A stretch of DNA of 24,124 nt from UHGV virus genome UHGV-0149432. One strand, written 5' to 3'. Positions within the stretch are counted from its first letter, which is position 1. Each line of letters begins with the position of its first letter. The notes under the pieces were generated by a model. It was not told the origin of the DNA, did no database searches, and worked only from the letters and a program-made list of their open reading frames with translations. Origin of the DNA: a virus. Below, one piece after another: positions 7,086 through 20,555 of this stretch. Both the position numbers and the translations under genes were made by a program.

Positions 7086-7765
7086 AAAATTTATCCTATA
7101 TTCGCCAGCAACTGATTGCGGCCACGGCAGATCTGAGCGGAGCGACAAAGGGTCAGTTAATGGCCTGGCTGGAGAACGCGCAGTTCGATACGAATACTTA
7201 CCCCCGCAAGAGGTTGCGTGTACGCGATGAAGTTACGGGAAAACTGATAACGCTGAACAACCCTCCGATCCCCGGAAAACAATCACACGCCAAAGGATCG
7301 CATATCCCGCTGGTGCAGCCGGTTGAATACTCCACTGCTTCATGGCGTCGGGCGCTAATGTCGCTCGACGAGCATCAAAAAGCCTAGTTGCTCTGGAGCT
7401 ACAGTGAAAATACTCGGTTTGAATATCAGGTCGACATAACCCGCTGGGCATGGAATAAGTTTACGGCGCAACTCGCTGGCAAGAAAATCGCCGGAAAAAC
7501 GCTGGAGCGACTCCGGGCGTTAATCTGGTTGGCGGCGCAGGACGTCAAAGCAGAGCTGTGCGGCCGCGAGACGTACGAGTACCAGAAGCTGGCTGAGCTG
7601 GTGGGCGTAGCTAAATCCACCTGGACAGAGACGTACCTGCCTCACTGGTTGGCACTGCGTAATGTCTTTAAGCGGCTCGATAATGATGCGCTTATCTCCG
7701 TAACGCGATCACGTTTACAACAAAAGGCGACAAATTCGAATGTAAGTCTTGCAAAACCGAACTGA
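7082..7765 (+). pseudogene. putative late-gene regulator (Q-like by position) interrupted by an in-frame amber codon
   Basis: Two track ORFs (7082-7387 and 7388-7765) are in the same frame separated only by TAG at 7385-7387; the second segment has no ATG/GTG start or SD; gene sits between the nin region and a pR'/tR'-like unit. Confidence 0.5.
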
Positions 7766-7789
7766 AACGCATATATTTTATGTAAGTCT
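7740..7789 (+). repeat. 10-bp direct repeat ATGTAAGTCT flanking the late promoter
   Basis: Copies at 7740-7749 and 7780-7789, bracketing the -35 and -10 elements. Confidence 0.5.
7749..7777 (+). promoter_or_regulatory. sigma70 promoter, candidate late promoter (pR'-like)
   Basis: TTGCAA (7749-7754), 17-bp spacer, TATATT (7772-7777); overlaps the 3' end of the Q-like gene and lies about 50 bp upstream of a strong terminator. Confidence 0.5.
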
Positions 7790-7830
7790 GATATCGTCGT
7801 TATAGCTTTAATTGTCGACACAAAGAATTA

Positions 7831-7860
7831 AAGCCCGAGGTTAACACCTTGGGCTTTTTT
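7831..7860 (+). terminator. Rho-independent terminator (tR'-like)
   Basis: AAGCCCGAGG-ttaaca-CCTTGGGCTT 10-bp stem (one G.U) followed by TTTTTT. Confidence 0.65.
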
Positions 7861-7871
7861 ATTGTTGTTTC

Positions 7872-8132
7872 TCAAATATAAAACTCTGCGCTTCCTAGCG
7901 GGGTGAAGCTATTTTTTGTTGCTGCGTTTAGCATTAAATCTGAGTTCAAAGCGCCAAGTGTTTGGGTGTCAGAAATCGCAACAAAAACCTCAATATTAGA
8001 GTTAAAGAATTTGCCTGCATTAATGCTGGTTCCAGTACTGATAAGATGAATTGAAAGTGCTGGGTGGTGCTTATGTGCTTCAAGCCTAAAGTTGGCCACT
8101 TGTGTATCTTGTACGCGATAGATGTGATGCAT
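7872..8132 (-). CDS. hypothetical protein (86 aa), accessory gene at the Q-lysis junction
   Basis: Minus-strand ORF with AGGAGG SD 5 nt upstream of the ATG; AT-rich surroundings; opposite orientation to the flanking late genes. Confidence 0.55.
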   Translation of the reverse strand: MHHIYRVQDTQVANFRLEAHKHHPALSIHLISTGTSINAGKFFNSNIEVFVAISDTQTLGALNSDLMLNAATKNSFTPLGSAEFYI

Positions 8133-8314
8133 GTTTCCTCCTGTGAAAGATTTTTAAATCGGCAATTTTCTAGAAAACTTAAATCTCTATTAAAAAATCT
8201 TTTTTTCTATTTCAGGTTTCGGGAATCATTCTCGATACGCTTTGTTGTTAAATCCAGCCCGAGGGCCTGACCCTACAACACACAGCTCCCGCATTTACCG
8301 CGAGGAGAGAGACT

Positions 8315-8473
8315 ATGAAGATGGACGAAAGATACAGCAACGCGACATACGGCAGCGCTGGCCTTGCGGCTTTCTTTGCCAGCCTGTCATTGCAGGACTG
8401 GGGCTTCATCATTGGCGTCGCGTTCAGCATCATCCTCGGCGTCCTGACATACAGGCTCAATAAGCGTGAGTAA
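8315..8473 (+). CDS. class II holin, phage-21 S-like (pinholin candidate) with dual-start motif
   Basis: 52-aa product MKMDERYSNATYGSAGLAAFFASLSLQDWGFIIGVAFSIILGVLTYRLNKRE: Met-Lys-Met dual start, two hydrophobic segments, short basic C-tail; GAGGAG SD; immediately upstream of a SAR endolysin. Confidence 0.65.
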   Translation: MKMDERYSNATYGSAGLAAFFASLSLQDWGFIIGVAFSIILGVLTYRLNKRE

Positions 8474-8587
8474 ATGAAGCGCACGAAGATACTGCAGGAC
8501 ATTCTGAACAAGACTGATTCAAGCAACCCATCTGCTACAGCCGAAGTTCTCGCCGATCTCAGACAGAAAGCACCGAAGGAAATCTGA
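8474..8587 (+). CDS. hypothetical small hydrophilic ORF (37 aa) between holin and endolysin
   Basis: ATG immediately after the holin TAA (TAAATG) in the same frame; stop overlaps the endolysin start (TGATG). Confidence 0.3.
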
Positions 8588-9075
8588 TGAACAGCACCCT
8601 GCGAAATAAAATTGCTGCCTCCATCGGTGGCGGTGCGATTGCGATCGCAACAGTCATGCTGTCAGGTAAGGATGGCGTTGAGGGAAGGGAGTATGTCGCA
8701 TACCGTGACGTCGTTGGTGTAATTACAGTATGCGATGGACACACAGGTTCAGACATCATTCCCGGAAAGCGATACTCCGATAAAGAATGCGACGCACTAA
8801 CCAGGAAAGATTTAACGCGAACTGCCGCACAGGTTGATCCGCACATCAAAGTGCCGACTACTGAAACTCAACGAGCAGCGATTTACTCTTTCGCGTACAA
8901 CGTTGGCGCTGGAAACTTCAAGACCTCAACGCTCCTGTACAAAATCAACCAGGGCGATATCAAAGGTGCATGCGAGCAGTTAAGGTGCTGGACTTACGCT
9001 GGCGGAAAGCAGTGGAAAGGGCTGATGACCCGCCGCGAGATTGAGCGCGAAGTTTGCCTGTGGGGTGAGAAATGA
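8587..9075 (+). CDS. SAR endolysin (phage-21 R-like lysozyme, T4-lysozyme fold)
   Basis: 162-aa product; N-terminal signal-arrest-release segment [18 protein letters not shown]; catalytic E-8-D-5-T pattern ([16 protein letters not shown]); C-terminus [27 protein letters not shown] as in R21-type lysozymes. Confidence 0.9.
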
Positions 9076-18792: not shown

Positions 18793-19173
18793 ATGGCTGA
18801 CCCAATCACAGCGGCAGACGTGCAGGCGTTCCCCGGTGAATTGGGTTACTCCATTCCGGGCTCGCTGCTGGAGCCGATCCTCTGCGTAGTGAACAAGATT
18901 ATCCCATGCCTCGATGGCGCGGGGTATGACGAGTGCACCGCGAAGCTGATCCTGATGTACGCCGCCGCATTGATGGCTACGTCGTCCGGCGCGCGTCGCA
19001 TCAAATCGCAGGGCGCTCCGTCTGGCGCGTCCCGCTCGTTTGAATATGGCGACGACAGCATCAACTGGCTGCGCGACTCACTGGCGAAACTCGATACCAG
19101 CGGCTGCACCGGCGACCTGCCAATCAGCGCCGGGAGCAGCGTCGGCCTGTTCATGGTGGTCGGAGGCTGCTGA
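18793..19173 (+). CDS. putative head-tail connector (gp6-like adaptor)
   Basis: 126-aa ORF in the usual connector position after the capsid gene. Confidence 0.5.
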   Translation: MADPITAADVQAFPGELGYSIPGSLLEPILCVVNKIIPCLDGAGYDECTAKLILMYAAALMATSSGARRIKSQGAPSGASRSFEYGDDSINWLRDSLAKLDTSGCTGDLPISAGSSVGLFMVVGGC

Positions 19174-19346
19174 TGACGTACAAATCAGTTAAGCACGGGC
19201 TGCCGCGCTCTTTCACCCGCGTCTGGGTGATGACCGACACCGGGCGGGAGACGACTGGCCACGTGAAATCGGATGGCGAGTGGTTCATCAACTGCCCGCG
19301 CATCCGGGCGACCGGCGCGAAGGTGCTGCGCTGGAAGGAGGGCTGA
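19173..19346 (+). CDS. hypothetical small structural-module protein (57 aa)
   Basis: ATG overlapping upstream stop (TGATG); stop overlaps the next start (TGATG); translationally coupled. Confidence 0.35.
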   Translation: MTYKSVKHGLPRSFTRVWVMTDTGRETTGHVKSDGEWFINCPRIRATGAKVLRWKEG

Positions 19347-19687
19347 TGTCGAGCATTGCTTCGTGGAGCTATACCGCCACGGCGACCATCTGGCGCAAAC
19401 TGGAAGGCAATGACGAATACGGCGACCCGCTAGGCTATGCCGAACCTGAGCAAATCATCTGTGATTACGAGGGCGGACTCAGCAAGAAGCTAGCCAGCCT
19501 GGGCGCTGAAATCGTCGTGAAGAATACCGTCTGGACGGAGTTTGCGCTGGCGGCCGCTGGTGATTACCTGCTGATTGGGGTTTCGACTGAAGCAGACCCG
19601 GTTGTGGCCGGTGCCGACGAGGTGCGCCAGGTTATATCCGCTACGCCGACACGTTCGAACGCCTGGCGGATGATTACGCCATCCTGA
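19346..19687 (+). CDS. putative head-tail joining / head closure protein
   Basis: 113-aa ORF with AAGGAGG SD; position between connector and tail-completion genes. Confidence 0.45.
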   Translation: MSSIASWSYTATATIWRKLEGNDEYGDPLGYAEPEQIICDYEGGLSKKLASLGAEIVVKNTVWTEFALAAAGDYLLIGVSTEADPVVAGADEVRQVISATPTRSNAWRMITPS

Positions 19688-19733
19688 CGGGAGTATGATA
19701 GAGTCTTCTAAACCCACGCGTTGAGAGGAATTT

Positions 19734-19907
19734 ATGTCTGAAGTCAGCGGTTACAACACTGGTAATTTCACTCCAGAGTCAGCGGGAGTTGTTGCGGATA
19801 AGCTTAATGAAATTGCAGAGCTAATTCGTAATGATCCGTCTCTTCTCATTCAGTTGGAATGGAAAGAGTCAGAGGATTCAAAAGAAATCAGCATCATGTA
19901 TAAGTAG
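19734..19907 (+). CDS. hypothetical small acidic protein (57 aa), accessory insertion
   Basis: ATG with GAGAGG SD 5 nt upstream; AT-rich; followed by an intrinsic terminator; below the track size cutoff. Confidence 0.45.
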   Translation: MSEVSGYNTGNFTPESAGVVADKLNEIAELIRNDPSLLIQLEWKESEDSKEISIMYK

Positions 19908-19925
19908 CACAACGCATTCAGATAA

Positions 19926-19949
19926 GGTCGCTAAGGCGGCCTTTTTTAT
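19926..19949 (+). terminator. Rho-independent terminator
   Basis: GGTCGC-taag-GCGGCC stem followed by TTTTTT; near-identical to the 15784 element. Confidence 0.6.
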
Positions 19950-19963
19950 TGCCTGGAGAAAAA

Positions 19964-20332
19964 ATGGGCATCAAAGTGAAGGGCGTCAACTAGGCGAAGA
20001 GGCACCTGAACACTATTGTTGGTGATATACAGGGGAGAAAAGTCGTTCGTGCTATGCAATCTGCTTTGATTATAGGCGGAACGCAGGCGGCTCTGTATAC
20101 ACCAATTGATACTTCAACCCTCATAAACAGCCAATTCAGAGAGATTACGGTGAACGGAAATCGTGTTACTGGGCGCGTTGGATACACTGCTAACTACGCC
20201 GTTTATGTCCATGATCCGAATGTACCGCAGAACTTCCGCCGGGCAACGGCCAAGAAAGAATTTCTTACTAAAGGTTTCGAAGAAACCCGGCGACAGATAG
20301 ACGCTGCAATCGCCAAGGAAATGTCGTTATGA
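19964..20332 (+). pseudogene. HK97 gp10-like tail-completion protein with in-frame amber at codon 10
   Basis: ATG at 19964 gives MGIKVKGVN then TAG (19991-19993), then the same frame continues AKRHLNTIVGDIQGRKVVRA into the track ORF 20054-20332 (ALYTPIDTSTL...VGYTANYAVYVH); typical family N-terminus is split by the stop. Confidence 0.6.
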
Positions 20333-20555
20333 CTCCTCCAATGTACGAACGAGTACGTAATCGTCGCCCAGCAGCAGAAAAGGCATAGGAAATCATCAAT
20401 TATGTCGAACAGAACGACATTGCCGATGAGTGCCTTGGCCTGATTCAAAACCTCGGGAATATGCCAGCACCACTCCTGACTGAAGAGGGACGATTGGTCT
20501 TCCGACTTCAGTTCATGTGCGTTTACGGCGAATAGCCCCCATCACCAACCCATCA

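Follow-up and report, generated by a model that had tools for sequence, protein, structure and literature searches.

In-frame TAG codons interrupt several late genes in UHGV-0149432, a virus genome of 24,124 nucleotides, here called the window. This raises the question of whether the codons are read as sense, are rescued by a suppressor tRNA, or mark genes in decay. TAG-recoded phages (genetic code 15), including crAss-like phages and others, carry in-frame TAG codons in late genes (bioRxiv 10.1101/2021.08.26.457843; PMC9523058). An original prediction, made from the letters of the window, regarded mutational decay as the simplest reading, but added that a suppressor tRNA of the supE type, supplied by the host or by another prophage, would also rescue ambers derived from CAG. 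In the present study we describe the window as a defective prophage remnant of ~20.6 kb, located in the phoP-purB interval of the Citrobacter koseri chromosome. We attribute its in-frame TAG codons to ordinary, stepwise mutational decay of this element, with a probability of roughly 93%. Mixed lesions, missing modules and a stepwise distribution among strains all support the decay reading.

Premature stop codons in phage genes

Four TAG codons and one TAA codon are found within genes of the remnant that are intact in relatives:

7082-7765, plus strand: Q antiterminator gene of the phage-82/Gifsy-1 type; premature TAG at 7385-7387 (TGG>TAG)
8315-8587, plus strand: holin gene of 90 codons; premature TAA at 8471-8473 (CAA>TAA, Gln53)
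17493-18572, plus strand: major capsid gene of the DUF6260 family, 359 codons; premature TAG at 18501-18503 (TGG>TAG, Trp337)
19964-20332, plus strand: HK97-gp10-like tail-completion gene of 122 codons; premature TAG at 19991-19993 (CAG>TAG, Gln10)
20329-20535, plus strand: tail-terminator remnant, an open reading frame (ORF) of 68 codons; premature TAG at 20386-20388 (codon 20, CAG>TAG)

The TAG codons originally claimed at 7385, 19991 and 20386 all lie in frame at exactly these coordinates, both in the sequence and in the translations. The TAG at 18501 had been taken for the ordinary terminal stop of the capsid gene, which is wrong. Intact capsid homologs are 359 amino acids (aa) long and have Trp337, and the 22 codons past the TAG, GAAGLMVKQDINGHFSVVFASS, up to a TAA at 18570, are identical to intact homologs of the same 90% cluster. 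With the capsid codon added, the premature ambers total four, not three. The ochre codon in the holin gene had been overlooked, and its presence breaks the 'TAG only' pattern.

It had been proposed that each TAG position be compared with homologs, and this comparison revealed sense codons (TGG or CAG) at all four sites in intact relatives. The Trp replaced in Q is invariant among homologs, and is encoded by TGG in loci L004, L009 and L010 of our comparison. Residue 10 of the gp10-like protein is Gln in all nearest 122-aa homologs, with CAG in L016-L019. The terminator site is CAG in L015 and in L023, a C. koseri variant of the element, where the terminator remnant is an uninterrupted 68-aa ORF that matches Phage_tail_terminator_3. 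The holin is 97% identical to the 90-aa holin of L017, and relatives have CAA or CAG at codon 53. The ancestral codons of the five stops are TGG (Q and capsid), CAG (gp10 and terminator) and CAA (holin).

TAG as a terminator and search for suppressor tRNAs

The genes of the remnant end in 11 TAA, 11 TGA and 2 TAG codons. The terminator gene naturally stops at the TAG at 20533, which is conserved in intact relatives, and the 116-aa head-tail gene ends in TAG in L015 and L018. We agree with the original prediction that wholesale reassignment of TAG is unsupported, since TAG still terminates and relatives have sense codons at the amber sites.

The prediction had also listed the TAG of a small gene as an ordinary stop. 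This 57-aa ORF (19734-19907, plus strand), between the head-tail gene and the gp10-like gene, does end in TAG, but as a predicted stop only. It has its own hairpin and T-run downstream (~19925-19950) and matches nothing in Pfam or PHROG. All C. koseri variants of the remnant have this ORF, whereas intact relatives lack it.

No tRNA was detected in the window by ARAGORN or by Rfam. A scan of the full genome for suppressor tRNA genes had been suggested; it was run on the window and on 18 further loci. These comprised relatives and, for four C. koseri loci, as much as 10 kb of flanking sequence, part of it lying beyond the window. ARAGORN found no tRNA with a CUA anticodon in the 18 loci, only Asn, Arg and Met tRNAs. 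The anticodon-arm pattern of a supE-type tRNA-Gln(CUA), whose wild-type counterpart had been confirmed beforehand in E. coli, gave 0 exact matches in IMG/VR, a result that does not extend to the source genome.

Frameshifts, deletions and missing modules

Stop codons are only one class of lesion in the remnant. Among genes that are intact in relatives, the five premature stops are accompanied by frameshifts in two genes, an internal deletion in one and truncation with fusion in another. Three of the affected genes are:

6368-6948, plus strand: ninG pseudogene with a 2-bp deletion, a 1-bp insertion and a 30-bp deletion
19346-19698, plus strand: head-tail joining gene (116 aa in relatives) with a 2-bp TA insertion at ~19633-19634 and a resulting frameshift
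20595-21404, plus strand: major tail protein, truncated; 99% identity to intact relatives over residues 1-177

The frameshift that the original prediction noted in ninG holds up, as the tblastn match is split over two frames and the DNA alignment shows the 2-bp deletion directly (GTCTGCAG in relatives, GTCT--AG in the window). This deletion creates a TAG at 6455. The TA insertion in the head-tail gene is present in the window, L024 and L025 and absent from L023, L015 and L018, as seen both in the alignment and in a tblastn match split over two frames. The tail-terminator gene encodes 127 aa in relatives, and the remnant carries an in-frame internal deletion of ~177 bp (~59 codons).

Beyond residue 177, the ~90 final residues of the major tail fusion show no relation to major tail proteins. 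In intact relatives the major tail gene is directly followed by DUF6246, a tape-measure gene, NlpC/P60 and large distal tail genes, none of which is found in the window; the truncation point marks the deletion of the tape-measure and distal tail genes. There is also no match in the window to Gifsy-2 cI, cro, cII, O or P, and recT is truncated. The loss of modules that had been predicted is thereby borne out, with no tape-measure, distal tail, immunity or replication genes found. Because both the tape-measure and distal tail genes and matches to immunity and replication genes are absent, the element is a tail-less, replication-less remnant.

The C-terminal ~92 residues of the major tail fusion (21126-21404, plus strand) weakly resemble the C-terminal end of phrog_20787, annotated as a 'virion structural protein', and may represent the 3' end of a tail-fiber gene joined through the tail-module deletion. 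These 92 residues had no tblastn match in the phage collection or the local loci.

Stepwise accumulation of lesions among strains

Four versions of the element at one chromosomal locus (L022-L025) were reached via the major tail fusion protein of the window, and the exact sequence of the truncated capsid protein is present on 41 contigs. The point lesions of L022 are identical to those of the window. L023 (CP052059.1) has the Q TAG, the holin TAA and the gp10 TAG, but it retains TGG at capsid codon 337 and CAG in the terminator, and lacks the TA frameshift. Private to L023 are a deletion of 8 bp next to the Q TAG, numerous small deletions across the nin region, and the loss of a large segment from the lysis genes to the Mu-F-like gene. 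L024 and L025 have the point lesions of the window wherever the region is retained, together with extra large deletions. The Q TAG and the holin TAA are common to the window, L023 and L025, and the gp10 TAG to these three and L024, where capsid codon 337 is TAG. Other capsid alleles of the cluster are frameshifted and 167 aa long.

The truncated major tail gene and the terminator deletion are found in all versions of the element, which means that at least the capsid and terminator ambers arose in an element already unable to make tails. As L023 keeps both sense codons, the stops accumulated stepwise. Lesion sets thus differ among strains that carry the same remnant, the pattern by which ongoing decay is recognized.

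Outside the divergent tracts at 16.7-19.75 kb and 23.5-24.1 kb, the window and L023 differ by ~8 substitutions, 1 of them nonsense. Because mosaic or recombinant tracts at 16.7-19.5 kb distort the substitution spectrum between the two, only polarized counts were used. The window lineage has 21 nonsynonymous and 28 synonymous changes, compared to 3 and 21 in L023 (Fisher p = 0.016), although these numbers are low and may partly reflect recombination. By these counts, the window lineage appears to be under relaxed purifying selection.

Almost all differences between the nin-Q stretch of L023 (~1900-3900, corresponding to window positions 5587-7382) and the window are short deletions of 2-20 bp, at least 7 in number, and substitutions are very few. 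This pattern suggests either deletion-biased decay or lower assembly quality, as the stretch includes a run of N.

Codon content and the predominance of TAG

Is the predominance of TAG meaningful in itself? The 24 prophage genes (13.6 kb) contain 135 CAG, 81 TGG, 48 CAA and 32 CGA codons, and TAG accounts for 46-57% of the expected nonsense changes under four substitution models. The probability that all four of four stops are TAG is 0.05-0.11, and that of at least four in five, with the holin TAA counted, is 0.14-0.29. The predominance of TAG is within chance. Among the codons that a single transition turns into a stop, CAG and TGG are the most frequent, which is why TAG prevails. Merging of ORFs across TAG, TAA and TGA in turn was uninformative alone, and homolog-based checks were used instead.

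Nonsense changes make up 4-5% of random substitutions, so that ~1% neutral divergence would be enough to give five stops in 13.6 kb. The head genes show a lineage-specific divergence of similar order (66 polarized changes in 2.9 kb). Substitutions in the window lineage comprise 33 GC>AT and 13 AT>GC changes.

Gene order of the remnant and neighboring features

The phage DNA is integrated and flanked by an integrase gene and host genes, as expected of a defective prophage. The order across the locus is phoP, int-xis, the phage genes, the gtr-like cluster and purB-hflD-mnmA. The two ends of the remnant are marked by the following features:

50-724, minus strand: host phoP (Pfam Response_reg/Trans_reg_C), an exact match to Citrobacter koseri PhoP
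795-2081, minus strand: integrase (Pfam Arm-DNA-bind_2 and Phage_integrase), left end of the remnant, adjoining phoP
2081-2296, minus strand: excisionase-like gene, left end of the remnant
21431-24074, minus strand, continuing past 24124: low-GC (33-39%) gtr-like O-antigen modification cluster, right end of the remnant, before purB

The early part contains the truncated recT, followed by the nin region (DinI, DUF1367, NinG, YlcG), the phage-82/Gifsy-1-type Q gene and the lysis cassette. The head genes come next, in the order small and large terminase, portal, Mu-F-like, DUF2213-like, decoration and DUF6260-family major capsid. After the capsid gene there are four small head-tail genes, the HK97-gp10-like gene, the tail-terminator remnant and the major tail gene, and the phage genes end at 21404. 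The terminase subunits, the portal, the Mu-F-like protein, the decoration protein and several small genes are still intact. Relatives of the portal protein, at ≤94% identity, were found in Atlantibacter, Enterobacter and Leclercia in one contig scan, and the E. coli genome collection contained distant relatives only.

The gtr-like cluster encodes a 566-aa protein that matches no family, followed by a family-2 glycosyltransferase of 318 aa. Its gtrA lies just past the end of the window, and purB, hflD and mnmA come next. The cluster is intact in the window, whereas the 566-aa gene is split in L023 (339 + 153 aa).

Directly 3' of Q, a full-length match to the Hfq-binding small RNA (sRNA) isrJ (Rfam RF01393, 55.5 bits) covers 7781-7857 on the plus strand and ends in a hairpin and T-run at ~7833-7865. 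Rather than a separate sRNA gene, this looks like the short late leader transcript that depends on Q, together with its terminator. An 86-aa ORF on the opposite strand (7872-8132, minus strand), located between Q and the holin gene, is kept in all remnant variants and in the relative L018, with no Pfam or PHROG match. In the early left region, a 134-aa ORF (3535-3939, minus strand) has a TolA C-terminal domain (PF06519; phrog_5772), and may have a superinfection-exclusion or Tol-interacting function.

Between the Mu-F-like and DUF2213-like genes, a lower-GC insert (14937-15758, plus strand) carries a 189-aa ORF (phrog_4350) and an ORF of ~60 aa; relatives have other cargo at this junction, such as an HNH endonuclease and other small ORFs. 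The DUF2213-like gene itself (15838-17034, plus strand; scaffold or protease-like) encodes 398 aa, compared to 460-462 aa in relatives. It contains an in-frame, highly divergent stretch at ~16436-16750 that is 64 codons shorter, which may be natural variation or a deletion.

Discussion

The following account best explains the observations. Large deletions took out two sets of genes, those for the tape measure and distal tail and those for immunity and replication, and the late genes that are left are drifting as pseudogenes. Spontaneous G:C>A:T transitions converted two TGG codons (Q and capsid) and two CAG codons (gp10 and terminator) to TAG, and the holin CAA to TAA, and small indels broke ninG and the head-tail gene. 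TAG has kept its meaning as a stop, with the interrupted genes yielding truncated, non-functional products and read-through products presumably absent. Weighing against this account is that 5/5 stops derive from G:C>A:T transitions, with P(5/5) ~0.03-0.05 at the lineage bias of ~3.7x. The surplus is mild and was noted post hoc, and it fits a general GC>AT pressure on unconstrained DNA. It could alternatively reflect a burst of G:C>A:T hypermutation, by cytosine deamination or a transient mutator state, which would also explain the 33 to 13 bias of the lineage. We consider such a burst unlikely, as the stops were not simultaneous (three are common to L023 and two are not) and as the universal GC>AT bias on unconstrained DNA gives a similar picture. 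A variant that would refine rather than replace decay is that the Q and holin knockouts were fixed for host benefit, since they disable the late-gene activator and the lysis trigger, with the capsid and terminator lesions being neutral drift. The Q TAG and the holin TAA are found in every variant that retains those genes, which makes them the oldest point lesions, and the glycosyltransferase cluster, intact in the window, is a part of the element that was apparently kept. Domestication of defective prophages is an established pattern, and Bobay, Touchon and Rocha reportedly described it as pervasive in 2014. However, the gp10 TAG is just as old without any apparent advantage, and the numbers (~8 substitutions between the window and L023, 1 of them nonsense) are too small to tell selection from drift, so that selected silencing is possible but doubtful.

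Readings in which TAG is translated fare worse. If a supE/supF-type tRNA in the host or in another prophage read the TAG codons, the late proteins would be full-length. In favor of this, four of the premature stops are TAG, two of them are CAG>TAG changes that a Gln-inserting suppressor would restore exactly, and the sequence past the capsid TAG is still identical to intact homologs. Yet the other two ambers replace an invariant Trp, and the holin ochre, the frameshifts in ninG and the head-tail gene, the deletion in the terminator core, the truncated major tail and the absent tail genes are all beyond amber rescue. No CUA-anticodon tRNA was found in the window, the four C. koseri flanks or relatives, the supE-type pattern is absent from IMG/VR, and the ambers build up stepwise alongside other lesions. 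In a suppressor-dependent phage all lethal lesions would be amber and the genome otherwise complete, which is not the case here. The rescue envisaged in the original prediction is therefore unsupported, and we regard suppressor dependence as very improbable. Equally improbable is a more elaborate scenario, in which a C. koseri lineage has an amber suppressor tRNA elsewhere and still makes low levels of full-length Q and capsid, so that the remnant could supply capsids or a late-gene activator to a satellite or co-resident prophage. Natural suppressor-bearing coliforms were reportedly described by Marshall and Levy in Nature in 1980. Recoding of the phage type (genetic code 15), in which TAG delays late-gene translation as in crAss-like and other gut phages, can be practically dismissed. 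The in-frame TAG codons in Q, capsid and tail-completion genes bear a superficial likeness to that system (bioRxiv 10.1101/2021.08.26.457843), but only 4 of ~24 genes are affected, every intact relative has sense codons at the orthologous positions, TAG is the conserved true stop of the terminator gene, and one strain (L023) has sense codons at two of the four sites. In contrast to TAG-recoded phages, the window and the 18 further loci yielded no suppressor tRNA, and the remnant also carries TAA, frameshift and deletion lesions. Every defining test applied for recoding failed, including a phage tRNA(CUA), disuse of TAG as a terminator, and many TAG codons common to relatives. A sequencing or assembly artifact, for which we see no point in favor, is just as remote, given that the truncated capsid is identical on 41 contigs and that independent NCBI and ENA assemblies (L007, L024, L025) show these codons as well.

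Ordinary mutational decay of a defective prophage also agrees with known systems. The element resembles the cryptic lambdoid prophages of enterobacteria, such as DLP12, Rac, Qin and e14 of E. coli K-12, in having an integrase beside host genes, modules lost by deletion, nonsense and frameshift lesions, strain-specific lesion sets and retention of cargo useful to the host, here the glycosyltransferase cluster. It differs from them in its site (phoP-purB of C. koseri) and in its DUF6260-capsid head genes, which are like those of Enterobacter, Klebsiella and Erwinia siphoviruses. To our knowledge, this C. koseri element has not been individually described. A likeness also exists to laboratory amber (sus) mutants grown on supE/supF hosts, which have CAG>TAG and TGG>TAG changes in essential late genes. 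Those phages are complete and viable on a suppressor host, whereas this remnant would make no virion under any translation regime.

The results carry a caution for annotation, since a check of gene lengths against homologs exposed both a fourth premature amber and the holin TAA. Abundant CAG and TGG codons, combined with GC>AT pressure, make amber the default nonsense codon in decaying enterobacterial genes, and a cluster of ambers alone is therefore no evidence of suppression or recoding. The remnant adds one more case to a well-known class, and the phoP-purB strain series in C. koseri provides a small, clean example of stepwise prophage decay in which the glycosyltransferase cargo is kept.

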